Positions 2,520 through 61,926 of a stretch of 64,000 bases of DNA are shown piece by piece. The stretch comes from a virus (lineage: Duplodnaviria; Caudoviricetes), in the IMG/VR virus record IMGVR_UViG_2934543808_000001, positions 70,013 to 134,012 of that record. One strand, 5' to 3'. The notes below the pieces were generated by a model. That model ran no database searches. It had not been told where the DNA came from and worked only from the letters and a program-made list of their open reading frames with translations. Positions within the stretch are counted from its first letter, which is position 1; each line of letters begins with the position of its first letter. Position numbers and translations under genes: made by a program.

Positions 2520-3080
2520 ATGCCCGAGACGGACAACGCACCGACGGTCGGTCAGAGCGACCTGGCGCTGAGGGCTGCGGTGGCCTACCGCGTGAAGAAG
2601 CGTGTCGCCGAGATCTGCGACCCGGTCATCGAGGAGAACGCCGAGCACATCCGGAACACGAAGGGCACCCGCAGCCTGTCGGCCGAGATGCCCCTTGCCG
2701 AGGGCGGCACCCAGCCGCTCGGCACCTTCACCCGGACGATGGCGAAGGCGAAGTTCCGCATCGAGGACCGGAAGAAGGTGCTCGACTACGCCGACGCGCT
2801 GGAAGAGACCGAGTACGTCATCCGCCCCTCCTTCGAGAAGGCGCTCCTGAGCCGCCTGGTCTGGAAGGACTCCCAGGTGATCGACACGGCCACCGGCGAG
2901 ATCGTGGAGGGCATCAGCTACGACCCGGGCGGCCTGACCGACACCGTCAGCCCGAAGTGGAACGACGCCGGCATGGAGGCCCTGGACGCCCTGCTCGGCT
3001 TCGTTGACGCGGCGCTGGAGAACCTGCCCCACCTGACGGCGGACGACTTCGCCCTTCCGGTGCTGGAGGCGGGCGAATGA
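2520..3080 (+). CDS. Hypothetical phage early protein
   Basis: GAGG RBS, strong GC3 bias, ATGA overlap with the whiB-like gene. Confidence 0.7.
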   Translation: MPETDNAPTVGQSDLALRAAVAYRVKKRVAEICDPVIEENAEHIRNTKGTRSLSAEMPLAEGGTQPLGTFTRTMAKAKFRIEDRKKVLDYADALEETEYVIRPSFEKALLSRLVWKDSQVIDTATGEIVEGISYDPGGLTDTVSPKWNDAGMEALDALLGFVDAALENLPHLTADDFALPVLEAGE

Positions 3081-3382
3081 TCCCCGCGTTCATGACCGAG
3101 TCGCCGTGCTCGCGCATCGACCCCGAGGCGATGTTCCCGGCCCCGTCGGACACGGCGGCCATCGCCTTCGCCAAGGAGCAGGTCTGCGGCACCTGCCACT
3201 TCCGGGCCCAGTGCCTGGAGTGGGCCATCAGCCCGTTCAGCCGCTCCGAGTACGGCATCTTCGGCGGCCACACCGAGGACGAGCGCCGCGACCTGGTCAA
3301 GGCCCGGAAGCTCGCCAAGCCGGTGCGCCTGAACTACGGGCCGCTGCCGCCCAAGCACCAGCGCCTCTCGGCCGCCGCCTGA
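3077..3382 (+). CDS. WhiB family transcriptional regulator
   Basis: Four Cys (C...CGTC...C), DPEAMFP and YGIFGGHTEDERR (GIWGG-like turn). Confidence 0.9.
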   Translation: MIPAFMTESPCSRIDPEAMFPAPSDTAAIAFAKEQVCGTCHFRAQCLEWAISPFSRSEYGIFGGHTEDERRDLVKARKLAKPVRLNYGPLPPKHQRLSAAA

Positions 3383-29497: not shown

Positions 29498-30133
29498 TCA
29501 GCCCTGCCCCGCGGTGACCAGGCACTTAGTGATGCCCGCGTTCACGGCGGCGACGTACGCGGTGAACGCCGGCGTCGTGCTCTTGCGGCCCGTCCGGGTC
29601 ATGTCCCCGTTCACGAAGAACGCGGTGCGTTGCGCGGTGGTGAGTTCGAGCTGGACGCCCATGCCCCTCGTGCCGCGGTTGCAGATGTTCTGGGGGTCGT
29701 TGCCGTTCAGCTCTTCGCTTGCCAACTGCACGGCGAACCCTGCCTCCTTCAGGCTCTGCCCGATCTGGTCGCGGAGGTTGTAGTCGAGGCCGCCGAGGTA
29801 GGTCGTCGCGGTGGCTCCGGCTGCGCCGTGCCAGGAGACGACGTGGGAGGCGGCCCGCACCATGGCGAGGGCCTGCGGCTCGTCGTACCGGGTGCTGGTG
29901 ACGTGCAGCTCGTCGTTGCTGCCGGCCGCCTTGAATCCGTCGAGGGTGTACCAGTCGTGCATGTCGCCGGACGCCGCCGCAGCGAGTTCCGACGTGCCGG
30001 TCTCGATCCCGCCCCCGTGAATCGCCAGGTGCAGCAGGGTGGAGAACGCCGAGATCCGCCAGGAGCGTTGGTAGTCGATGCCCTCGATCTGCCCGCTCGC
30101 CAGTTCGGCGTAGGAGTTGTAGAGGTCGCCCAT
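29498..30133 (-). CDS. Poly-gamma-glutamate hydrolase family (PghP/DUF867)
   Basis: YNSYAEL, AIHGGGIETGTSELA, LHVTSTRYDEP, SWHG, NICNR and GVQLEL motifs. Confidence 0.85.
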   Translation of the reverse strand: MGDLYNSYAELASGQIEGIDYQRSWRISAFSTLLHLAIHGGGIETGTSELAAAASGDMHDWYTLDGFKAAGSNDELHVTSTRYDEPQALAMVRAASHVVSWHGAAGATATTYLGGLDYNLRDQIGQSLKEAGFAVQLASEELNGNDPQNICNRGTRGMGVQLELTTAQRTAFFVNGDMTRTGRKSTTPAFTAYVAAVNAGITKCLVTAGQG

Positions 30134-30160
30134 GAGGGTCCTGTCTGGTTCGGTGCCGGG

Positions 30161-31039: not shown

Positions 31040-31552
31040 CTACTCCGCGGCCGGGGCGAGCTGCGCGCGGAGCCGGGCGACGACCCGCTCCATCTGCCCG
31101 CGCTTCAGCTCCGCACCGATCGGCACGAGCAGCCGGGTGGCTGGCGTGTTGTACGCGCCCATGCCGACGTGCTCGATGAGGCGAGCAGTGCAGCGGAAGG
31201 TGTTGCCGTGTGGCGGCTGCACGTGCACGAACACCGCGTCGGGGTCCGCCGGGGCCGTCCCGGTGGCCTCGTCCACGATGTGGTCGCTGATCTGCGCGGG
31301 CAGGAGCTGCTGGGCCGTGGTCATCGGGTCGGGCTCCGGACGGGGCTCCGGCTCGGCCGGGGGCTCCAGCGGCGCCACGTCGGGCACCTTGGTCTCGGCC
31401 GGCTCGGGCGTCTTGGCCTCGGTCTCGACGGCCGCCGTCTTGTTCTCGGCGGCCTCAGCCGGCTCCGGGGCCTCCACCGTGTCCGGGGTCTTCTCCTCGG
31501 TACCGGTGTCGGCGTCGGTCGTGGTGGTCTTGCGTGCGCGGGGCGGGGTCAC
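31040..31552 (-). CDS. Hypothetical protein with an acidic Pro-rich N-terminus
   Basis: 170 aa; AGGAGG RBS. Confidence 0.6.
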   Translation of the reverse strand: MTPPRARKTTTTDADTGTEEKTPDTVEAPEPAEAAENKTAAVETEAKTPEPAETKVPDVAPLEPPAEPEPRPEPDPMTTAQQLLPAQISDHIVDEATGTAPADPDAVFVHVQPPHGNTFRCTARLIEHVGMGAYNTPATRLLVPIGAELKRGQMERVVARLRAQLAPAAE

Positions 31553-31589
31553 AGGGTCCTCCTGCCGTGTTCGTGAACGTGGAGGAGGA

Positions 31590-31622
31590 ACCCTGGACCG
31601 TGCGCGCCGCTACCGTCTCGGT
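31590..31622 (-). promoter_or_regulatory. Late-promoter motif copy
   Basis: CCGAGACGGTAG; CAGGGT 19 nt after GAC. Confidence 0.55.
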
Positions 31623-32167: not shown

Positions 32168-33415
32168 TCACAGGATGCGGAGGTCGTCCCACCCGTCGGC
32201 GGTGACGGAGAAGACGAGCAGGCCGGGCTGGGACACCTCTCCGGAGCGCATCGCGTACCAGTCCGAGCCGTTGTCGAGCGTGGGGGCCTGCACCCACAGG
32301 CGGCCGGCGCCGAGCTGCTGGGCGCGGAAGTGGTGGAAGTGCCCCGAGACGAGGATCTTGGCGTCGGCGATGGGCTGGCGGCCGAAGGTCTGACCTCGCC
32401 ACCAGTCCGGGGCTTTCTCCGGGCGGGGGTACTGGTGGCCGTGGTTGAGGCCGACGATCGTCCCGGCCATGTCGAGGCTGACGGTGTCGCGCCAGGGTTC
32501 GGGCGTCACGAAGGAGACGTGGCCGTAGGCGTCCGTGTTCTTGGCGTAGGCGTCGGCGATCTGGCTCATGACCTCGATGCCCCAGTCGTCCTCGGGCGGG
32601 CCCACGGGGTCCTTGCCGCGCCGGACTCTGGCGTGGTTGGAGCCGCAGGTGGCGGCGACGACGCGAGGGAAGGCGGTGGCGAGCCGGTCCAGGCCCTCGA
32701 ACGTCAGCCTGCGGTGGACGCGCACCATCTGCGTGAGCGTCAGGTCGTTCGTGAATGCCTGGCTTGCGACGTTTTCGAATCCTTCGATGCAGTCGCCGGC
32801 GTCGAGCCAGTACGCAGAGTCCGGGCTGCGCCCGACCTTGCCGAGGTCGCGCAGGTGGTCTTCCAGCCGGTCGAACCGTTCGGCGACCCGGGACACCAGT
32901 TCCTTCGTGCCGCCGTCCCGGCCGACCTTTCCGGCCTGCGGGTCCGCGTACACCACGGCGAGGGCCCGAGCGCTGCTCGCCGCTGGGGTGCGCGGCTTGC
33001 GGCGGCGTCGCATCACGTCCCGGATCAGGGTGTTGAGGTCTTCGGCGGAGGCCCAGCCGGGCACGGTCGGCTCGATCAGGTACCGGCAGCGCCACACGGG
33101 CCGGGTCACGGCGTCGTCGCCCTGGGCGTCGCGGTGCCACGCGGCCGGGTCGTGGCGGGCTTCGACCAGGCGCACGCGGTAGCCGTCGGGGACGCTCAGC
33201 CCCAGCTCTTCAACGCGGGCGCGCCAGCCGGACTCGTCCTTGGGCGGGGGGTCGGCGGCCGGCGCCGTGACGAGCATGGCGCCGCCGGGCTCGTACCGTA
33301 CGCCGGGCTCCCATCCCTTGGGGGCGGAGACTGTGGGCCGGGTGGTCTCGGGCGGAGCGCTCTGTTCGGCAGTGGCCGGCGCGAGGAGCGCGTCGAGGTC
33401 GCTTTCGAGGCTCAT
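32168..33415 (-). CDS. Calcineurin-like metallophosphoesterase
   Basis: ADPQAG, GDCIEG, GSNH, HGH and GHFHH motifs; ATG 33415 overlaps the upstream TGA. Confidence 0.85.
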   Translation of the reverse strand: MSLESDLDALLAPATAEQSAPPETTRPTVSAPKGWEPGVRYEPGGAMLVTAPAADPPPKDESGWRARVEELGLSVPDGYRVRLVEARHDPAAWHRDAQGDDAVTRPVWRCRYLIEPTVPGWASAEDLNTLIRDVMRRRRKPRTPAASSARALAVVYADPQAGKVGRDGGTKELVSRVAERFDRLEDHLRDLGKVGRSPDSAYWLDAGDCIEGFENVASQAFTNDLTLTQMVRVHRRLTFEGLDRLATAFPRVVAATCGSNHARVRRGKDPVGPPEDDWGIEVMSQIADAYAKNTDAYGHVSFVTPEPWRDTVSLDMAGTIVGLNHGHQYPRPEKAPDWWRGQTFGRQPIADAKILVSGHFHHFRAQQLGAGRLWVQAPTLDNGSDWYAMRSGEVSQPGLLVFSVTADGWDDLRIL

Positions 33416-33681
33416 CGCGGGCACCTGCATCCGTTGGAGGCGCCACGGCGGCGGTGCCGGGCGACGGCCGGGGCCTGCACGCGGTGCCCGCCGCCGGTGA
33501 GGGTGTTGGCGATCCGCGTGGCGGTGACGGTCGGGTTGTCGAGCACGGACTGGAACTTGGCGGCCGTCGCGGCATCCAGCGTGTCGAGGATCGCGCCCAC
33601 GGTGCATCGCGGGCCCTTCGGGGGATCAGGCTCTTCCAAGAGCCGGGTGAGGGCCGTGCCCAGCCCATTCGTGTCTGCCAC
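33412..33681 (-). CDS. Small Cys/His-containing protein (HTH/Zn-binding) coupled to the phosphoesterase
   Basis: CTV...IANTL...VARHRR...CRCP; AGG RBS. Confidence 0.6.
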   Translation of the reverse strand: MADTNGLGTALTRLLEEPDPPKGPRCTVGAILDTLDAATAAKFQSVLDNPTVTATRIANTLTGGGHRVQAPAVARHRRRGASNGCRCPR

Positions 33682-33756: not shown

Positions 33757-35067
33757 TCAGGGGGCGGCCGGGGTGGTCCAGGAGCCGATCACGAAGGACT
33801 CGGGCCGGCTGACCTCAAGTGCCAGGCGCTCGTCGGCACGGAAGGTGAGAACGCCCCTCTCGAAGTTGTCGCTGTTCTCGCTGGAGACGGTGACCGAGAC
33901 GTTCTCCCGGTCGTAGAGCTGGGCGCCCATCCCGAAGGAGCCCAGAAGGTAGTTCCCATCCGGCATCGCCGTGGTCTCGACCACGTTCAGACGCCAGACA
34001 CGCTTCTGGGCGCCGACGGCGACCTGGAGGGCGACACGGAACGCGCCGTTGTCGTCGGTCTCGACCTCGACCTCTTCCCACATGGTGGGGCTGATGACGA
34101 TGCCGGTCGGCTCGTACTCGGCGAGCAGGGCCTTGGTCATGGCCCGGCGCATCTGGATCGAGAACTTGTCCTTCGCCAGGCCCTGGTAGGTCTGGACCCC
34201 GGGGGTGTTGAACAGGCCCGTGATGGACGTGCCGTCGCCGCCCGCGGAGTGGAGCAGGTCGTAGTCCTCGGCGAACTTGATGCCCTCCACGAGGCGCGAG
34301 TTGATGAACTGCTTCAGCCGCGGCTCGTCGGCGAGGATGTTCTTGTGGCCGTCGAGCATGTGCGCGATCTCGGCGACGGGGAAGGCCACGGGCTCCAGCT
34401 TCAGCTTCGACCGCGGGGCCTTGCCGAACACGTCGCTGTCCAGGCCGGTCGGCGCGGACACACCGTCGGCGGCCCGGCGCTCCGGTACCTGCGCGGCGTT
34501 GTTGACCCACCCGGTCTCGCGGATGCCGATCAGGACGGGGCTCTTGGTCTTGGCCTTCGGGAACAGATCCCTGATGTGCCACTTGCGGCGCTGCGCCTCG
34601 GTGATGCCGAGATCCTGCGCGGAGCCCAGGGCCTGCACGGTGTGGGTGCCGGCGGACAGGGAGAAGATCGACTTGCCCTCGATCTCGGCGCGGATGAACG
34701 GGCGCTCCTTGAACTCGCTCTCGGCGGCGCGCTGGTAGGCGGCGGACTCCACGAAGTAGTCGCCGAGGCTCTTGACCTCCGGGCCGGCCGCGGACGCGCT
34801 GCCGTAGAACTGCCCGGCGGCCGACGAACCCTCGGGGGCGTCGAGGTAGCCGGTCAGGTTCTCGGCTCCCTGCGCGGCGTCGAGGAGGCCCTTGATCTCC
34901 TGGGCGCTCTTGACGGCCTTGACGTAGGCGTTGCGCTGCTCGGTGGAGACGACGAACGCGCCGTTCTCCTCCTTGAAGGTGCCCGCGATGCGCTCGGCCT
35001 CCGCCGACTTCTCGGCGAGCTGTCCCTTCAGGGACCGGATGAGGCTCTTGTCGGTGGCGGTAGCCAT
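33757..35067 (-). CDS. Major capsid protein, HK97 fold with N-terminal delta domain
   Basis: ATG 35067 with AGGAG RBS; coiled-coil N-terminus, IAH....K.IL.D.P.L..FI..RL, GDGT.ITGL, NFER...TFRADERLALEV.RPESF. Confidence 0.92.
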   Translation of the reverse strand: MATATDKSLIRSLKGQLAEKSAEAERIAGTFKEENGAFVVSTEQRNAYVKAVKSAQEIKGLLDAAQGAENLTGYLDAPEGSSAAGQFYGSASAAGPEVKSLGDYFVESAAYQRAAESEFKERPFIRAEIEGKSIFSLSAGTHTVQALGSAQDLGITEAQRRKWHIRDLFPKAKTKSPVLIGIRETGWVNNAAQVPERRAADGVSAPTGLDSDVFGKAPRSKLKLEPVAFPVAEIAHMLDGHKNILADEPRLKQFINSRLVEGIKFAEDYDLLHSAGGDGTSITGLFNTPGVQTYQGLAKDKFSIQMRRAMTKALLAEYEPTGIVISPTMWEEVEVETDDNGAFRVALQVAVGAQKRVWRLNVVETTAMPDGNYLLGSFGMGAQLYDRENVSVTVSSENSDNFERGVLTFRADERLALEVSRPESFVIGSWTTPAAP

Positions 35068-35235: not shown

Positions 35236-37197
35236 TCAGAGCGTCAGTGAAGCGAGGAGCGCCTTCACCTCGTCCGCGTCCAGGCGGACTTCGTCGGCAT
35301 CGTCCTCGGGCTCGTCGTCCGTGTCCGGCTGCTCCGCCGGGACTGCGGCCGGGGTGTTCCCCGTGGGAACGGCGTCGTCGGTGGCGCCCGACTCCGGCTC
35401 GTCGTCGTCCCAGCCGTCGGTGATCTCGTAGTCGTCGTCCCACAGGTCCAGGGAGGAGCCGGCCGGGGGGTTGCTGTGCTGCTTGTCCATGGGGAGGCCC
35501 TTCTTCGCGAGGGAGTTGAGGAGTTGGGTGATCTTCGGCTTGAGGTGTTCGAGGTGGGAGGGGGCGGCGTCGGAGACCTCGATCAGGGCTGTGGCGTCGT
35601 CCAGCGCGACGGCCGTCGGCTGGACGAAGCGGGCGTCGATCTCTTCGGAGCCGCCGACGGCGTGGGTGTCGCCGGTGACGGGGAGCGCCACGGTGGTCAG
35701 CTCGACCTCGGTGGGCTTGCCGAGGTCGATGTCCCGGCCGGCGACGACGTACGGGACGGAGTAGGTGGTGGGGCCGGTGGCGTCGCTGTGCCGGGTGACG
35801 ATGACGTGGTCCGGGTACGTCGCTTCGACGCACACCCAGCAGTCGCCCTGATCCTTCTCGTACTCGTTCTTGAAGAGGTGCCGTACGGAGTCGGCGAGAC
35901 GGGCGTGTAGTTGCTCGTAGGACAGGGGCATGGGGCTCATGGGCGCGGTCTCCGGGTGTGGGGTGGACTTCGCTTCGAGGACGATCTGCGCCGCCGACTT
36001 CGTCTCGACGCGGGCGGCCGGGCGGGCGGACTTCGCTTCGAGGACGATCTGCGCGGCCGACTTCGTCTCGACAGGGGTCTGCTCGGGGGCGGGGGCCGGT
36101 GGCGGGGACGACGCAGGGGCCGACGCGGCGGTCTGGCCGAGGGGAATGAAGGAGGTGTCTCCGCCCCGGACGACGGCGATCTGCTCGAAGGTCACGGGGG
36201 TGGCGGGCACGGGCTCGATGTCCGGGAGGTTGTAGCCGAGGGTGACGTGCGGGGTGTAGCCGTGCCGGGCGTCGAGCTTGTCCGAGTACACCGACGTCCG
36301 CAGGGCGTCCACGACCCGTTGCCGAAGCTCGGCAAGCCCCGGCACGTCGACGGGCACCCAGGCCGGCTCACCGTCCCCGGTGTCGGGGAAGCGGCCGAGG
36401 CCGCCGATGGTGCCTGCCAGTGAGCTGCTGCCGGTGACGGCCGGGGTGACGATGTCGCGGAGGTCGTCCGGGTGGCCGCCGAGTTCCGCGGCGTCGCCGA
36501 GGTACGCGAGCGTGACGTGCAGGTGCTCGGCCGGGGTGCCCTCGGGATGCGCGATCTTCGCCGCCACGTCGGGCGGGAGCCGGAGCGCGACCATCACCCC
36601 GACGCCCGTCTGCGTCTCGGCGGCCTTCAGCTCGACCGCCGACCAGGTCGCCTTGTGCTCCAGCTCCCCCCGCTCCGCGCCGACGGACGCCTTCACCTCC
36701 AGACTCCGCGTGAGCGGATGAGCGCCGTGGAGCACCGGGCTGACCTCGTACAAGTCCAGGTCGTGGATGATCCGTACGCCGTCGTGACGCTTGGAGGCGC
36801 CGCCGGGGGTGACCTTGTACCCGATGGAGAACGCGGCTTCGCCGTTCTCGTGCCACTGCTTGACCTGCGCGTAGGCGTCCCGGCCCCACGACGTCCCCAT
36901 GTTGAACTGCACCGTGGCGACGAGCGCGCCCGCCTCGCGCGGCCAGACGCTGCCCCCGGGGATGGTGGCGAACCGCGGATCACCCGGCATCCACTCCTCG
37001 ACCTCCAGCACGCTCCCCACTGGGTCCTTCCAGGAGTGGTGCCAGACGCTCTTTACCCGGCGGGTGGCGAGGGTGCGGGTGAAAGCCCCCGGGAGGATGA
37101 GGTCTTGGACCTCATCCACCACGCCGGTGACAGCGAAGATGGCGCGGACGATGCCCCTGCTCGGGCGCGGGCGGCTGGACGGCGGGGTACGGGGCAC
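35236..37197 (-). CDS. HK97-type prohead protease fused to a 2H phosphoesterase (LigT/Acb1-like) domain
   Basis: VDEVQDLILPGAF, WHH..DPVG, FSIGY and LYEVSPVLHGA (S78 protease), then HVTLAYLG and PHVTLGY (two HxT motifs); GTG 37197 with AGGAGG RBS. Confidence 0.88.
   Translation of the reverse strand: MPRTPPSSRPRPSRGIVRAIFAVTGVVDEVQDLILPGAFTRTLATRRVKSVWHHSWKDPVGSVLEVEEWMPGDPRFATIPGGSVWPREAGALVATVQFNMGTSWGRDAYAQVKQWHENGEAAFSIGYKVTPGGASKRHDGVRIIHDLDLYEVSPVLHGAHPLTRSLEVKASVGAERGELEHKATWSAVELKAAETQTGVGVMVALRLPPDVAAKIAHPEGTPAEHLHVTLAYLGDAAELGGHPDDLRDIVTPAVTGSSSLAGTIGGLGRFPDTGDGEPAWVPVDVPGLAELRQRVVDALRTSVYSDKLDARHGYTPHVTLGYNLPDIEPVPATPVTFEQIAVVRGGDTSFIPLGQTAASAPASSPPPAPAPEQTPVETKSAAQIVLEAKSARPAARVETKSAAQIVLEAKSTPHPETAPMSPMPLSYEQLHARLADSVRHLFKNEYEKDQGDCWVCVEATYPDHVIVTRHSDATGPTTYSVPYVVAGRDIDLGKPTEVELTTVALPVTGDTHAVGGSEEIDARFVQPTAVALDDATALIEVSDAAPSHLEHLKPKITQLLNSLAKKGLPMDKQHSNPPAGSSLDLWDDDYEITDGWDDDEPESGATDDAVPTGNTPAAVPAEQPDTDDEPEDDADEVRLDADEVKALLASLTL
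35355..35371. promoter_or_regulatory. 17-bp parS-like palindrome, copy 8 (inside the protease CDS)
   Basis: TGTTCCCCGTGGGAACG, read as VPTGN in the gene. Confidence 0.6.
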
Positions 37198-37234
37198 GGC
37201 GGGTTCCTCCTGGCGGACGTCTCGGGCGGTGCGC

Positions 37235-37267
37235 ACCGTGCCCCCGCGGAGGGGTTACCGTCCTGCG
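37235..37267 (-). promoter_or_regulatory. Late-promoter motif copy (protease)
   Basis: CGCAGGACGGTAA; CACGGT 19 nt after GAC. Confidence 0.5.
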
Positions 37268-37304: not shown

Positions 37305-37922
37305 TCACTTCCACGGCAGCTTGCCGCCCTTCTTCTTCGCCGGGTCGTCCTCGTCGGCGTCGGCGTCCTCCTCGCCGTCCGGGTCGTCGTCGGTCTCGGC
37401 GGCCGGGTCTTCCTCGGCGGGGTCGTCGCGGTCCTCTGCGTCCGCAGCGGGGTCGACTGCTTCGTCCGCGGTTCCGAGATCGAGCGGTTCCACGTCGCCC
37501 GGGGGGAGGGCGCCCGGGTCGGTGGCCGCCGGGTCCGTGGCGGCGGGGTCCTGTGCGCCGTCGGCGGGCGGCTCACCGTGGTTGCCGCCGGTCTCCTGCA
37601 TGCCGGCGTCGTCCACGTCGATGGCCCACGTGTCCGGGTCGGAGTACCGCCAGACCTGCCCGGTCTCGTCTCGTACCCAGCCCGTGAGGGTGCCGTCCTC
37701 GGCCTTGTCGAGCCACGCCTGCTCACCGTTCGGGCCGGACAGAGCGGCGTACGCCTGCGCGGGGTCGGTCTCGTCGCCCTCGTCGTACACGTCTCCGGCC
37801 CAGGGGCGCGCGTCGTCCGCTTGGGGCGGCTGCATCTCCGGTGGCGGTGGTGCGGCCGGGGGGCCGGCGGCCGGGTCGGCGGCGGGCTGGGGCAGGTTCT
37901 TCACGGCGTATGCGTAGTCCAC
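37305..37922 (-). CDS. Acidic hypothetical head-module protein
   Basis: 205 aa; Trp-rich core (AWLDKAEDGTLTGWVRDETGQVWRY) with an acidic tail ending KKKGGKLPWK. Confidence 0.65.
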   Translation of the reverse strand: MDYAYAVKNLPQPAADPAAGPPAAPPPPEMQPPQADDARPWAGDVYDEGDETDPAQAYAALSGPNGEQAWLDKAEDGTLTGWVRDETGQVWRYSDPDTWAIDVDDAGMQETGGNHGEPPADGAQDPAATDPAATDPGALPPGDVEPLDLGTADEAVDPAADAEDRDDPAEEDPAAETDDDPDGEEDADADEDDPAKKKGGKLPWK

Positions 37923-37929
37923 GGGCGGC

Positions 37930-37961
37930 AGGGTCCGGGCCGGGGCTGCTTACGTCTCGGG
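37930..37961 (-). promoter_or_regulatory. Late-promoter motif copy (leaderless)
   Basis: CCCGAGACGTAAG; GACCCT 18 nt after GAC and 7 nt before the GTG. Confidence 0.6.
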
Positions 37962-38005
37962 CTGATCCCCTGCCGTGGCTCCCGGCCGCTCGCTACTCTC
38001 GATGC

Positions 38006-38248
38006 ATGACTGAGTTGACGGTGTCCGTGGATGACCGCCTGGCGGACCAGGTGGCGGAGTCTGCCCGCCGGTACGGGCTGCCGGTGGACGTGTACGTGGA
38101 GCGGGTGCTGCGCGCGGCCGAGACCCCGGGCGCTCCTGACCGTGAGGAGCGCGCCCGGGAGCTGGCGCGCGGGGCCTTCCGGCAGTGGGATGAGGCCGGG
38201 CGGCCCGAGGCCGGCGCGATGAGCATGGCGGAGGTCTTCGGCAGGTGA
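38006..38248 (+). CDS. Putative antitoxin (ribbon-helix-helix-like)
   Basis: MTELTVSVDDRLADQVAESARRYG...MSMAEVFG; TACTCT -10 element 6 nt before the ATG; GTGA overlap with the partner gene. Confidence 0.6.
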   Translation: MTELTVSVDDRLADQVAESARRYGLPVDVYVERVLRAAETPGAPDREERARELARGAFRQWDEAGRPEAGAMSMAEVFGR

Positions 38249-38493
38249 GCGCGATCCCCGCGCGGTTCGCGTCGAACGTCGGCCGGACCATCCGTGACCT
38301 GCCCACCCCCGACCGGGACGAGCTTGAAGCGGCGATCGTCCGCGCCTGCGAGGACCCGTGGTCGTGGCCGCAGGCCGACAAGTACGAGATGGACGAGTCG
38401 GTGCGCGTCATCACGACGCGCACCGCGATCGTCCACTACGTGATCCTGCCGGGCCCCGACCCCCACCTTTGGGTGTTCGCGATCACTGTCTGA
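38245..38493 (+). CDS. Putative RelE/ParE-like toxin
   Basis: 82 aa; F...V.RTIRDLP..DRDELEAAI..ACEDP, C-terminal beta strands (IVHYVI...LWVFAI); coupled to the antitoxin. Confidence 0.55.
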   Translation: MSAIPARFASNVGRTIRDLPTPDRDELEAAIVRACEDPWSWPQADKYEMDESVRVITTRTAIVHYVILPGPDPHLWVFAITV

Positions 38494-58917: not shown

Positions 58918-59130
58918 CTACATCGTCTCGGTGAGGATGTGCAGCAGGAACCAGCCGCTGAAGCCGAGCCAGCCAACGGTGAACACGGCCCGGCCGGTCT
59001 TCGAACTGCGGGTGCGGAAGAGCGCCCGGGTGTTCTCGCTGAGGGTGTCGCCCTCCTTCTTGTTGATCAGCGCCCAGGTCTCGAACAGGGCGAAGAGGGC
59101 GGTCCACAGGGCCCAGATGATCCAGCTCAC
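58918..59130 (-). CDS. Small two-TM membrane protein (70 aa)
   Basis: GTG 59130 overlaps the portal TGA; AAGGAG RBS; MSWIIWALWTALFALFETWALINKKEGDTLSENTR...WFLLHI. Confidence 0.7.
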   Translation of the reverse strand: MSWIIWALWTALFALFETWALINKKEGDTLSENTRALFRTRSSKTGRAVFTVGWLGFSGWFLLHILTETM

Positions 59131-61565
59131 GGGGTTTCTCCTTCGGTGCGGTAGCGCAGGCGGCAGCGGCAGTTGGCGGTCAGGTACAGGGGGGCGAGCT
59201 GGTCGCCGGGGTAGCGCATGGGGTAGCCGTCCACGTCGTACGGCTCGGTGACGGGCAAGGTGATCCCGTCGACGTCGGCGTGGGCTTCCCGTACGCGGTC
59301 GTCGCCGCGGGTCACCCAGGTCCGGACGATGTCGGGGCCGATCGCCGCGGCGGTGGCGTCGGCTGCGCCGTTGACGGTGGCGACGGCGGTGCTCTCGGCG
59401 ATGCCGACGGCCGTGCGGGGCCCGATGTCGGCGAAGGCCGTGCGGACGAGCGCCAGCAGGTCCTCGATGTCGCCGGTCACGTCCTGCGCTTGGCCGAGGA
59501 GTCCGCTCAGGGTGTCCAGGAAGTGCCGGGCGGTCTCCTCGGCCGCGTAGACGGCATCGAGCACCGCGGTGGTGACGCGGGCGGCGGCGGAAGCGGGCGG
59601 CTCCGGGGCGCCGAGGGCGGCGGCCGTGCGCTGGGATACCCCGTGCGCGATGCCGGCCAGGACGTGCGCCAGGGTGCCGGAGACCTCGTCCAGCCACCGG
59701 TCGGTGCCGATGATGCGCTCGATGTCCAGTGCCGCGTCCCCGCCGCGGGTGTCGGTCGGGCCGTCGTCCCGCCAGAACCGGGTGCCCTTGCGGGCCTTGG
59801 GGGAGCGCAGGCGAGCGGTGATCACGCCCTTCTGCCGGTCGAACAGCGGGGCGAGGGCTGCGGAGACGGTCTGCATCGCCTGGTCGAAGTCGTCGTCGGT
59901 GACCTCGAAGCCGGTCGGTCCGGACAGGAGCGCCTTGGCTTGGAGGCCGCGGGCCTCGGCGACGGCCGCCGCCGCTTCCCCGGGCATCCGCTGCTCCGTC
60001 TGGCGTGCCGACTCGACGGCCGCGGCTGCTGCGCCCGGCTGCCCGCCGAGGCTGCCGTCTTCGCGGGCAGCGGCGACGGCCGCCGCTGCCGCCCCGGTGC
60101 CGGCCGTGGCCGGGTCTGCGGGCTGGCCTCCCTCGGCGCGGGCCTGAGCGACGGCCGCCGCGGCGTCCCCGCCACCCGGGTCGGCGGGCGGGAGCGGCGC
60201 GTTCGGGTCGCTGCCGGGCGGGAGCTGCCCGCCGGGGGCGTGGGGGTCGCCAGCACCCTGGATGCCCAGTGCTGCGGCGTCCTCCGGCCGGGCGGGGACG
60301 GGCGCTTTCTGCGGGGAGATCCACAGGGCCCGGCTGTGGGGGTTGTTGTAGGCGGGCAGGCCCGCGCGGCGCCGGTACTCGTCGATCGAGATCAGGCCCG
60401 CTTCCCACTCCTCGCGGGCCTCGGCGCGCCGCCGGCGGCGGGGCAGCTCCAGCACCTCGACGCTGCTGGTGTTGAACCGGATGTCGGCTTCCGGGTTGCT
60501 GATGTCGCTCGCGAAGGCGTTGGAGATCATCGCGAGGTGGTCCAGCTCGGTGTGGGACCAGAAGTTGAACTCTTCCTGCTCGGCGTTGTCGAAGGTGCGG
60601 CCGGAGGCGTTGCCGAGGACGCTCTCCGGGACGCCGAACGCTCCCAAGATCTCGATCTTGGCGTTCTGCGCGGCGTGCTCGTACGCCATCTCGCGGGGCT
60701 TGGCCGCCAGGTCGACGTAGTTCATGCCGCCGGGGCCGGCGCCGACGACGGAGACGTGGCCGGCGAATTCGCTGCCGGGCAGGAACCGGGACTCCAGGCG
60801 GTTCATCTCCTGCTCGCTGAGCGAGGTGGTGTCCACGGCGACGATGCCGCCGGGGCGGGCGTCGTTGCGGATGAAAGCCACGTTGTAGAGGCGCGAAAGG
60901 TAGTCCAGCTCGATGCTGACGCCCGCGGCCTCCAGGGGCGTCATGCCGGAAAAAGGATCAGTTGGATGAGGGTCCCGAATCCAGCGGACGCGCTCGGGGT
61001 CCAGCTCACGGACCTCGCCGAACAGGGTGGTGAACTCGAAGTGGGCGATGTACTCGCCGCGAGGGTCGGGGACGGGGATGACCCGGTCGGGCGGGAGGAG
61101 GTCGAGGCGGGTGATGGTGCCGCGGTTGCTCCTGGTCACCTCCACGAACGCGCCCCGCTTGGACAGCAGGATCTGAGCGGAGAGGCGCTTGCGGAACTGG
61201 GCGCCCGTCTCGACGGGGTTCGCCCGGCCGTTGAGGACCCGGAGGAGCGGGTCGTCCTCGATGACCTGCTCGAACTCGCCGTCTTCGGAGAGGCCCATCC
61301 CGATCTCGATGGGGAGGCGGCCGGCGTGCTTGCTGATCGTCTCGATGGCCTTGTAGACCCAGATGACGCGCTCGTAGCCCTCGGTCACGACACGGTCGAG
61401 GTCCCAGCCGTCCGCGCGGCCCTCGGTGGACCACACGTTGGAGGTGCCCGCGTAGGTGGTGGAGGCGTAGCCGCCGGTCCACGAGAGGTTCTTGGTCTCG
61501 GGCTCGGCCTCGGGGCGCTCGGGGATGAGCGACCGGAGAGCGGGGAGCCAACGGCGCTTGGCCAC
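59127..61565 (-). CDS. Portal protein fused to a MuF (minor head) domain
   Basis: WVYKAIETIS, GMTPLEAA, NDARPGGIV and ILGAFGVPESVLG (HK97 portal); C-terminal WVTRGDDRVREAH...YPGD...NCRC (MuF). Confidence 0.9.
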   Translation of the reverse strand: MAKRRWLPALRSLIPERPEAEPETKNLSWTGGYASTTYAGTSNVWSTEGRADGWDLDRVVTEGYERVIWVYKAIETISKHAGRLPIEIGMGLSEDGEFEQVIEDDPLLRVLNGRANPVETGAQFRKRLSAQILLSKRGAFVEVTRSNRGTITRLDLLPPDRVIPVPDPRGEYIAHFEFTTLFGEVRELDPERVRWIRDPHPTDPFSGMTPLEAAGVSIELDYLSRLYNVAFIRNDARPGGIVAVDTTSLSEQEMNRLESRFLPGSEFAGHVSVVGAGPGGMNYVDLAAKPREMAYEHAAQNAKIEILGAFGVPESVLGNASGRTFDNAEQEEFNFWSHTELDHLAMISNAFASDISNPEADIRFNTSSVEVLELPRRRRRAEAREEWEAGLISIDEYRRRAGLPAYNNPHSRALWISPQKAPVPARPEDAAALGIQGAGDPHAPGGQLPPGSDPNAPLPPADPGGGDAAAAVAQARAEGGQPADPATAGTGAAAAAVAAAREDGSLGGQPGAAAAAVESARQTEQRMPGEAAAAVAEARGLQAKALLSGPTGFEVTDDDFDQAMQTVSAALAPLFDRQKGVITARLRSPKARKGTRFWRDDGPTDTRGGDAALDIERIIGTDRWLDEVSGTLAHVLAGIAHGVSQRTAAALGAPEPPASAAARVTTAVLDAVYAAEETARHFLDTLSGLLGQAQDVTGDIEDLLALVRTAFADIGPRTAVGIAESTAVATVNGAADATAAAIGPDIVRTWVTRGDDRVREAHADVDGITLPVTEPYDVDGYPMRYPGDQLAPLYLTANCRCRLRYRTEGETP

Positions 61566-61566
61566 G

Positions 61567-61926
61567 TCAGTCTCCCTCGCTGCTCAGGAAGACGCCGACG
61601 GCGACCAGGAGGGCGAACAGCAGGGACCAGGGGGTGAGGGCGAACGCGAGCCCGGCCAACACGGTGAGGCCGAGGGACAGCGCGCAGTACCCGGCGACGA
61701 GCCGCACCGCAGGGTTCAGCGGCGGGGTGATGTACAGGACCGTGTAGCCGCCGACACAGAGGACCAGGCCGGCCAGGAGGAGCGCGACGAGCGGTTCGGC
61801 GATGTACAGGGCCCCGAGCAGCCCGACCGTCCCTGAGCCGATCAGGAAGAGGCCGAGCAGGTCGCGGAGGATGCGACGGCGCGGTGCCCGGTGGCTTGGG
61901 GGCGGAGACTGCGTTGGAGGATTCAC
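61567..61926 (-). CDS. Four-TM membrane protein upstream of the portal
   Basis: 119 aa, hydrophobic; stop 1 nt before the portal GTG. Confidence 0.7.
   Translation of the reverse strand: MNPPTQSPPPSHRAPRRRILRDLLGLFLIGSGTVGLLGALYIAEPLVALLLAGLVLCVGGYTVLYITPPLNPAVRLVAGYCALSLGLTVLAGLAFALTPWSLLFALLVAVGVFLSSEGD

Follow-up and report, generated by a model that had tools for sequence, protein, structure and literature searches.

A phage prohead protease polyprotein with a 2H phosphoesterase domain set between predicted protease sites

The locus studied here raises the question of what a 2H phosphoesterase domain does in the same polypeptide chain as a prohead protease, and whether the enzyme travels inside the phage head. 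The gene lies on the minus strand at 35236..37197 of the window, that is, the whole stretch of 64,000 nucleotides analysed, which corresponds to positions 70,013 to 134,012 of the IMG/VR record IMGVR_UViG_2934543808_000001. This virus record is complete (134,012 bases, direct terminal repeats, CheckV completeness 100), the window being its second half, and it represents a 134-kb Streptomyces phage of the Gilgamesh/phage-plasmid group. A sequence-only reading of the locus had described an S78 protease followed by a domain with two HxT motifs and bracketed by E-x-K sites, had called this domain Acb1-like, and had proposed that it is packaged with the protease and released by self-cleavage. On balance, the analyses presented below incline us towards a head-maturation protease polyprotein whose 2H domain is loaded in the prohead, cut free, kept and probably ejected with the DNA.

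The polyprotein and its predicted cleavage sites

The gene occupies one uninterrupted open frame of 666 codons (35236..37236, minus strand). Its start is most likely the GTG at 37197, since a GGAGGA site lies 7 nt upstream of this codon and most homologues begin there, at an equivalent MPRTPP, which gives a gene of 35236..37197 and 653 amino acids. Residue numbers in this text are counted from 37236; subtracting 13 gives the numbering from 37197. The parts of the gene and the adjacent capsid gene are as follows:

35236..37197, minus strand: whole gene, encoding protease, 2H phosphoesterase and presumed capsid-associated C-terminal region, 653 amino acids, GTG start at 37197
36691..37155, minus strand: S78 (HK97 gp4-type) prohead serine protease domain, residues 28-182 (Pfam PF04586, 2e-10)
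36622..36705, minus strand: first linker (disordered), whose three E-x-K-[A] sites are LEVK/A, LEHK/A and VELK/A (K182, K195, K204)
36127..36621, minus strand: 2H phosphoesterase domain, residues 206-370 (Pfam PF13563, 1.2e-11)
35932..36126, minus strand: linker 2, a Pro/Ala-rich stretch and the duplicated module VETKSAAQIVLEAKS, which carries four E-x-K-S sites (K392, K402, K413, K423)
35491..35931, minus strand: C-terminal folded domain, residues 436-582 (AlphaFold model, conservation)
35239..35490, minus strand: acidic disordered tail (583-649) and conserved C-terminal helix (650-666), with the site DEVK/ALLASLTL
33757..35067 (or 35130), minus strand: HK97-fold major capsid protein (Pfam Phage_capsid, 1.9e-26)

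The N-terminal part was recognised as a head maturation protease by Peptidase_S78 (residues 107-177, 41.5 bits against a cut-off of 21) and by phrog_80 (residues 28-192, 2.8e-20); the NCBIfam equivalog TIGR01543 also matched, below its cut-off of 59 bits (E 1.9e-12, 47.5 bits), and no PDB sequence relative of this domain was found at E <= 10. Alignment with MAFFT paired H67 with H65 of HK97 gp4, which we take to form the catalytic pair of that enzyme together with S114. The protease S137 stands in the context S-I-G-Y, like M-S-V-G-F of gp4, the two serines being left unaligned by MAFFT. Both H67 and S137 were kept in 77 of 77 relatives (39-96% identity). The following domain was recognised by PF13563 (2_5_RNA_ligase2, of the 2H superfamily; residues 230-340, 45.3 bits against a cut-off of 27) and contains HVTLAYLG, which starts with H240 (H-V-T at 36511-36519), and PHVTLGY, which holds H330 (H-V-T at 36241-36249). 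These histidines were likewise present in all 77 relatives, with the T/S positions kept in 76 and 77 of them. The two-domain arrangement proposed from the letters alone was thus borne out, with both Pfam domains above cut-off, and the computed limits of the 2H domain (~36127-36621) agree with the ~36150-36600 given before. When modelled alone, the 2H domain reached a predicted local distance difference test (pLDDT) score of 91.8 and a Foldseek probability of 1.00 to many 2H structures.

The full-length AlphaFold model (77 sequences, mean pLDDT 77.6) showed three folded units at residues 29-177, 213-365 and 440-578 and a terminal helix at 654-665, which are separated by disordered stretches (178-205, 375-393, 404-412, 425-431 and ~587-649), the pLDDT falling below 50 over linker 1 (178-205) and over residues 599-649 of the tail. 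At the DNA level, the duplicated module of linker 2 is a 63-bp tandem repeat at 35960-36092 (Tandem Repeats Finder: period 63, 2.1 copies, 86% matches). The motif E-x-K-[SAT] occurs eight times in the polyprotein, at residues 180, 193, 202, 390, 400, 411, 421 and 656, compared to 0.44 occurrences expected, and none of 1000 residue shuffles reached eight. The 2H domain is indeed bracketed as had been described, with three sites before it, four after it and one in the C-terminal helix. In the full-length model, each of the eight is placed in a linker, in a short helix of a linker or in the C-terminal helix. In order along the chain, the motif was kept in 69, 67, 37, 74, 50, 52, 71 and 65 of the 77 relatives, and in none of them did it occur inside the 2H core (0/77). 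A wider set of 155 related proteins followed the same trend, with 0.79 motifs per 100 residues outside the domains and 0.15 inside them (5.4-fold).

The capsid gene, which lies 105 bases downstream of the stop codon of the protease gene, provided a second view of the site. Its product shows 29% identity to HK97 gp5 (E 1e-33) and has an N-terminal (delta) region of 99 residues ending in G-P-E-V-K/S-L-G-D, so that the predicted cut is PEVK/SLGDYF; E-x-K-SLGD was kept in three of the three relatives aligned. HK97 gp5 reads F-N-K-S-L-G-S-D at 101-108, at the position matching E-V-K/SLGD, and its cut is presumably between K103 and S104. The capsid protein is the predicted substrate of the protease. 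Because a capsid E-V-K/SLGD at the HK97 cut position is found together with the motifs in the polyprotein linkers, the same type of predicted site marks both substrates.

The region beyond the second linker is less familiar, with no Pfam or PHROG family matching beyond residue 394. The C-terminal domain is modelled as a helix, a beta-sheet and two long helices (pLDDT mostly 81-95 over 440-578). It was found with a local hidden Markov model (HMM) in most relatives, it is common to polyproteins carrying either 2H or NUDIX domains, and it is conserved in gp52 of Streptomyces phage Gilgamesh and in a protein of Streptomyces zaomyceticus. Its sole sequence match in the PDB was at chance level (E 0.17), no match was found in the ESM Atlas (the best score, 0.86, being uninformative), and the Foldseek results obtained with the full-length model were taken up by 2H matches and are uninformative on this domain. 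It is presumed to be a scaffold-like or capsid-interior part. The tail helix at 654-665 holds the last site, whose E656-x-K658 is the one kept in 65 of the 77 relatives.

The motif was also considered in other products of the same region. A 189-aa protein encoded downstream of the capsid gene (31040-31609, minus strand) has three E-x-K-T motifs in its acidic N-terminal part, compared to 0.19 expected, a number that was reached in 1 of 1000 shuffles; this protein may be a further substrate of the head protease. Cleavage of the neighbouring giant protein of 6710 amino acids at the same motif was not supported (two sites compared to 4.6 expected).

Relatives and the position between the linkers

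A word-index search scored 7998 candidates, of which 347 proteins reached E <= 0.001. All of the 120 matches listed among these 347 carry the 2H family, and 117 of them also carry S78 (P0008, P0066 and P0094 being without it). The listed relatives are nearly all from Streptomyces or Kitasatospora, many on contigs of ~120-137 kb, and the name '2'-5' RNA ligase/phage head maturation protease' is already in use for them in databases. The phage family phrog_18402, 'head maturation protease', matches the 2H part itself, so that catalogued phages already include this fusion. Matches in PLSDB came from 13 plasmid records; in four of these the match spans 80% or more of the query, and four carry the annotation 'NUDIX domain-containing protein', with matches confined to the flanks. 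Among phage records, 69 matched and none covers 80%, the best being gp52 of the cultured phage Gilgamesh. Both gp52 and the S. zaomyceticus plasmid protein consist of S78, NUDIX (E ~5e-16) and the same C-terminal region, within the same gene order, and Pfam 2H was found nowhere in the Gilgamesh, S. zaomyceticus plasmid and Thermobispora plasmid records (0/3).

In a full HMMER scan of 1.84 billion representatives, 4625 proteins passed E <= 0.001 and 359 of these also passed E <= 1e-30. Among the best 64 representatives, the domains detected by Pfam at E <= 1e-5 were S78 (52), 2H (48), NUDIX (10), peptidoglycan-binding (3) and Acb1 (1, at 2.2e-7). Local HMMs applied to the 155 proteins sorted them mainly into protease-C-terminal domain (60), protease-2H-C-terminal domain (42), protease only (21) and protease-NUDIX-C-terminal domain (8); five hold both 2H and NUDIX and are more distant relatives. 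In a FastTree phylogeny of the protease domain (151 rows, 156 columns), which is weakly supported (only 25 of its 147 inner branches are starred), a minimum of 35 changes in cargo type is required; if the starred branches alone are counted, the minimum is 11 changes for 2H and 6 for NUDIX. The smallest starred clade that includes the protein of the window holds four 2H proteins, two NUDIX proteins and one with neither, a label that also covers fragments and unknown inserts in this tree. Since close relatives carry NUDIX at the place of 2H and more distant ones carry both domains, the position enclosed by the two linker arrays behaves as a slot for exchangeable cargo.

Other contents of this slot and its linkers were recorded. 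The longest inserts at the cargo position of protease-C-terminal domain relatives (P0242, P0190, P0189, P0240, P0205, P0248, P0257, P0204, P0235 and P0267), of 395-538 residues, are without a Pfam family in all ten cases, and they may be unknown cargo types. An optional Cys/His-rich insert of ~65 residues is found between E-x-K sites in linker 2 of P0048, P0064, P0076 and P0097 and in linker 1 of the Thermobispora bispora plasmid protein (L004), with the conserved pattern RxWY..GEGA..I.WG..GDF.RC, and P0016 has a zinc-ribbon-like CPTC...CRNC insert at the same linker place; no Pfam family was recorded for either insert. In P0136 (1000 aa), the 2H halves (HxT near 240 and 538) are split by a NUDIX-like sequence, and this layout suggests that one cargo domain is nested inside the other.

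Affinities of the 2H domain and readings of its role

Comparison with solved structures grouped the domain with RNA-processing 2H enzymes. In the Foldseek search of the PDB, the Deinococcus cyclic phosphodiesterase 5h7e ranked first (E 4.7e-8), with E. coli LigT and Thermus TT0787 also on top; ThpR/LigT-type enzymes spanned E 4.7e-8 to 1e-6, viral 2',5'-phosphodiesterases followed at ~1e-4, and Usb1 was also among the matches. Acb1, as defined by Hobbs et al. (2022; PMC9117128), came at rank 30 (7t26, E 6.8e-4, template modelling (TM) score 0.50 on the query). In accordance with this order, phmmer against PDB sequences gave E 0.0014 for 5h7e, a 2',3'-cyclic phosphodiesterase, and E 1.8 for 7t26, and Pfam Acb1 (PF23474) did not match the protein at E <= 1. 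Pfam LigT_PEase and 2H-SAK matched the 2H part weakly, and the nearest NCBIfam model, the ThpR equivalog TIGR02258, scored 27.1 bits against a cut-off of 65.7, a score that does not show membership of that equivalog. Among the predicted viral structures of BFVD, the best matches were 2H domains in actinophage proteins of 320-1100 residues (E 4e-14 to 8e-8, TM up to 0.78), some of them named 'capsid morphogenesis protein' or 'putative structural protein', with Acb1 entries at ranks 42 and 48. The earlier label 'Acb1-like' did not hold as family membership, given the missing Pfam match, the phmmer values and the fold and BFVD ranks behind ThpR/LigT. Sequence and model comparisons instead place the domain in an actinophage clade of ThpR/LigT-like 2H domains that are repeatedly fused to head-interior proteins.

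The mechanism towards which we lean can be set out as follows. The C-terminal domain and the end helix would bring the chain into the procapsid during its assembly, co-assembly being a requirement for prohead proteases. The protease would then cut after Lys in E-x-K-[S/A/T] sites, removing the delta domain of the capsid protein and dividing the polyprotein into the protease (to K182), a 2H piece of 188 residues (A205-K392), a C-terminal piece of 235 residues (424-658) and peptides that are 8-13 residues long. The 2H piece would be expected to survive this process because it has no internal site and its catalytic histidines are intact. In the two weaker steps of the scheme, the folded piece of ~20 kDa would stay trapped in the head and would leave with the DNA at the next infection, acting before phage gene expression. 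Candidate substrates are 2',3'-cyclic or 2'-5'/3'-5' linked nucleotide signals, or RNA ends. Packaging and release by self-cleavage, as proposed by the sequence-only reading, gained support of an indirect kind: since the 2H domain is fused to a prohead protease, bracketed by conserved sites of the capsid type and free of sites in its core, loading into the prohead and release by cleavage is its best reading and is well supported indirectly. Peptidoglycan-binding cargo, as in three of the 64 representatives, would be easiest to understand if the protein leaves the capsid, and the alternation and co-occurrence with NUDIX fits a small-nucleotide or an RNA-end role equally.

As to the substrate, a strict Acb1-type enzyme, directed against CBASS (antiphage signalling based on cyclic oligonucleotides) or ring-nuclease-like, which would cut 3'-5' cyclic di- or trinucleotide or cyclic oligoadenylate signals, seems rather improbable. 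It would share the superfamily and chemistry of the domain, a 2H fold with two HxT motifs; Acb1 is among the fold matches in both the PDB and BFVD, one of the 64 related polyproteins matches Pfam Acb1, and delivery at time zero would suit a signal-degrading enzyme. The sequence comparisons nevertheless give it no match at family level, by fold no fewer than 14 different ThpR/LigT-type entries are placed above it, as are the viral 2',5'-phosphodiesterases, and the domain has ~165-188 residues compared to ~150 for Acb1, which has a C-terminal lid (part of PMC9117128). This role is nonetheless among those proposed for head-fused 2H domains in parts of two surveys (Iyer et al., 2017, PMC5512222; Iyer et al., 2022, PMC9503650). 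An RNA-end enzyme is a further candidate that we consider unlikely, either healing 2',3'-cyclic phosphate ends left by host anticodon nucleases or ribotoxins, or contributing to host shut-off as an RNase similar to Usb1; NUDIX would be the matching alternative for 5' ends (decapping or pyrophosphohydrolase). RNA 2',3'-cyclic phosphodiesterases come nearest to the domain both among solved structures and among NCBIfam models, and Usb1 is among the fold matches. Both 2H and NUDIX are known as RNA-end enzymes. The ThpR equivalog score is, however, far below its cut-off, and neither RtcB nor a PF09414 RNA ligase was found in the whole 134-kb record, in which KptA/Tpt1, polynucleotide kinase, T4-type Rnl1 and other ligase families were not searched; there is thus no heal-and-seal set in cis among the families covered, which argues against a self-contained RNA repair set. 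An RNase reading of head-fused 2H domains is also offered in part of Iyer et al. (2017; PMC5512222).

The place of action and the need for catalysis were weighed in the same way. An enzyme working in the producing cell, where the uncut or cytoplasmic polyprotein, produced late and in equal number with head proteins, would destroy signals or repair RNA when capsid proteins trigger abortive infection and the head content would be waste, has in our view a low probability. The gene stands in the late head operon between the portal and capsid genes, the 2H domain folds on its own with high confidence in the models and should be active even in the uncut chain, and the abstract of a preprint ties escape from type I CBASS to virion assembly proteins (10.1101/2023.05.21.541620). 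This explanation leaves the conserved flanking arrays of sites and the site-free core unaccounted for, however, and a free-standing late gene would do equally. That the 2H domain is a structural spacer or filler of a scaffold-protease protein, with no enzymatic role, is very improbable indeed: H240 and H330 and their T/S positions are retained down to 39% identity, 57 of the 63 2H-domain matches in the 155 proteins keep both motifs, the others being four truncated or split domains and the two of the Thermobispora lineage, so that all complete domains outside this lineage keep them, and the alternative cargo is another hydrolase and no random filler. What speaks for a spacer is the Thermobispora cassette described below and the 60 of 155 relatives with protease and C-terminal domains and other or no recognisable inserts, the ten longest of which lack a Pfam family.

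Several points weigh against delivery of an active 2H enzyme from the head. Cleavage specificity is deduced from motif statistics, conservation and the capsid site, and the motif rule is clearest in the protein's own family, because only 20 of the 63 2H domains of the wider set are flanked on both sides by a motif within 60 residues. The weak support of the protease tree counts here as well. In HK97, protease fragments presumably leave the head. As the gene is a late one, its product could act uncut where it is made, in the producing cell. Those solved structures that come closest are RNA 2',3'-cyclic phosphodiesterases of a housekeeping type rather than known anti-defence enzymes. Finally, in the protein of the T. 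bispora plasmid NZ_CP039125 (L004, 4899-7016) and in P0181 both 2H histidines are replaced, with LRVEL and PFVVLG at the motif positions of a Thermobispora cassette still recognisable by the local HMM (E 6.5e-11); it may be a dead enzyme kept as a binder or spacer, and catalysis is therefore not always needed. A still broader extension of loading and ejection is possible rather than probable, namely that the polyprotein is a general cargo-loading device, in which any folded domain placed between E-x-K arrays, whether 2H, NUDIX, both, a peptidoglycan-binding module or an unknown insert, would be loaded into each capsid at protease copy number, cut free, retained for want of internal sites and injected before genes are expressed, 2H and NUDIX being alternative payloads that erase Streptomyces nucleotide immune signals and their swaps the trace of an arms race.

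The head operon and relation to known systems

The gene belongs to a late head operon on the minus strand, in the order portal-MuF, giant protein, 205-codon acidic open reading frame (ORF), protease-2H and capsid. The members preceding the protease gene are:

59127-61583, minus strand: portal fused to a C-terminal MuF-like domain (Pfam Phage_portal, 4.9e-45)
38729-58861, minus strand: giant ORF of 6710 codons between the portal-MuF and protease genes, with SNF2 and UvrD helicase domains
37305-37922, minus strand: acidic ORF of 205 codons

The MuF-like part of the portal gene gave a weak Phage_Mu_F match at residues 732-809 and matches to PHROG head-morphogenesis families at 675-815. In the giant protein, the SNF2-type domain lies at about residues 1538-2109 and the UvrD-type domain at 2858-3100, and no Pfam family covers its C-terminal 3356 residues. 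The protein resembles the very large 'polyvalent' proteins of actinomycetes to which Iyer et al. (2017) refer. Two small overlapping ORFs on the opposite strand (37841-38248 and 38245-38493, plus strand) lie between the giant gene and the head genes in a layout like that of a toxin-antitoxin pair, the 82-aa member being without an NCBIfam match. Within the structural module, directly after the capsid gene, are genes for a metallophosphoesterase-like protein (32168-33607, minus strand; phrog_284 'exonuclease', 6.9e-57), whose Gilgamesh counterpart is annotated metallophosphoesterase, and for a poly-gamma-glutamate hydrolase (29498-30160, minus strand; 8.1e-59). No NUDIX domain was found in the phage, and its only 2H domain is the one described here.

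The main value added by this analysis is the evidence for a slot, delimited by protease sites, in which close relatives of a culturable phage have either 2H or NUDIX; the hypothesis of packaging and injection thereby becomes directly testable. Gilgamesh on S. lividans offers a culturable test system with the NUDIX version in the same slot. If the cargo is delivered, a simple rule for pre-loading counter-defence enzymes would follow, in which a domain is inserted between protease-site linkers, and a comparison of 2H with NUDIX as payloads could reveal the nucleotide signals that are important in the little-studied immunity of Streptomyces.

Among known systems, HK97 provides a protease homologous to this one (gp4) and a homologous capsid protein (gp5), which likewise has a ~100-residue delta domain and a junction of the type Lys/Ser-Leu-Gly. 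HK97 gp4, however, has 225 amino acids and a short C-terminal tail with no cargo, whereas the chain described here continues for 470 more residues with an enzyme and a large C-terminal domain. The internal proteins of T4, with their capsid-targeting sequence, and the protease-scaffold precursor of herpesviruses are analogous in outline: cargo or scaffold is brought into the procapsid, where the head protease cuts it at sites in linkers, one of them close to the capsid-binding C-terminal end, those of T4 being injected against host defence. The T4 proteins differ in having a short N-terminal targeting peptide and a protease of a different family, and neither system is related to the polyprotein in sequence.

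With respect to the 2H domain, ThpR/LigT enzymes (5ldm, 5h7e, 1iuh) are the best fold matches (E 4.7e-8 to 5e-7, TM ~0.6) and have the two HxT motifs in common with it, but the identity is only 17-21% and they are free-standing, whereas this domain is embedded in a virion polyprotein. Closer are the 2H domains of actinophage head proteins (gp18 of Arthrobacter phage Edmundo; MuF-type proteins of Gordonia and Microbacterium phages), which belong to the same 2H clade, occupy BFVD ranks 1-15 and show 38-41% identity to residues 213-366. Edmundo gp18 has the reverse order, with 2H followed by an XkdF-type protease (Peptidase_S78_2) of a different family, and the other fusions are to MuF-like 'capsid morphogenesis' proteins of 880-1100 aa. 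Acb1 (T4 57B; Erwinia phage FBB1, 7t26/7t27) is a phage 2H phosphoesterase too, with the same catalytic histidine pair according to part of PMC9117128, but it is a free protein.

No paper was found on an S78-2H fusion, on Gilgamesh or on virion proteomics of such fusions, and the supplementary lists of PMC5512222 and PMC9503650 may include the architecture. In the passages on head fusions in Iyer, Burroughs, Anand, de Souza and Aravind (2017; PMC5512222), 2H domains of phage polyvalent proteins are fused to MuF or portal and are proposed to act as RNases or to degrade defence nucleotides, while those in Iyer et al. (2022; PMC9503650) describe NudE-like NUDIX domains fused to MuF, portal and a capsid-processing serine peptidase and regard the 2H-MuF and 2H-portal fusions as probably packaged and injected. 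The general idea of packaging and injection was thus already predicted in print in 2017 and 2022, and the polyprotein is a well-conserved example of it and no new principle. As in those head-fused effectors, an enzyme domain is placed in one frame with a head-morphogenesis protein in the structural operon. The partners of 2H in these passages are MuF and portal, and an assemblin-like peptidase stands at the C terminus of polyvalent proteins, whereas the protease described here is N-terminal; unlike the fusions as described there, the cargo lies between two arrays of predicted cleavage sites, and 2H and NUDIX alternate in one slot among close relatives.

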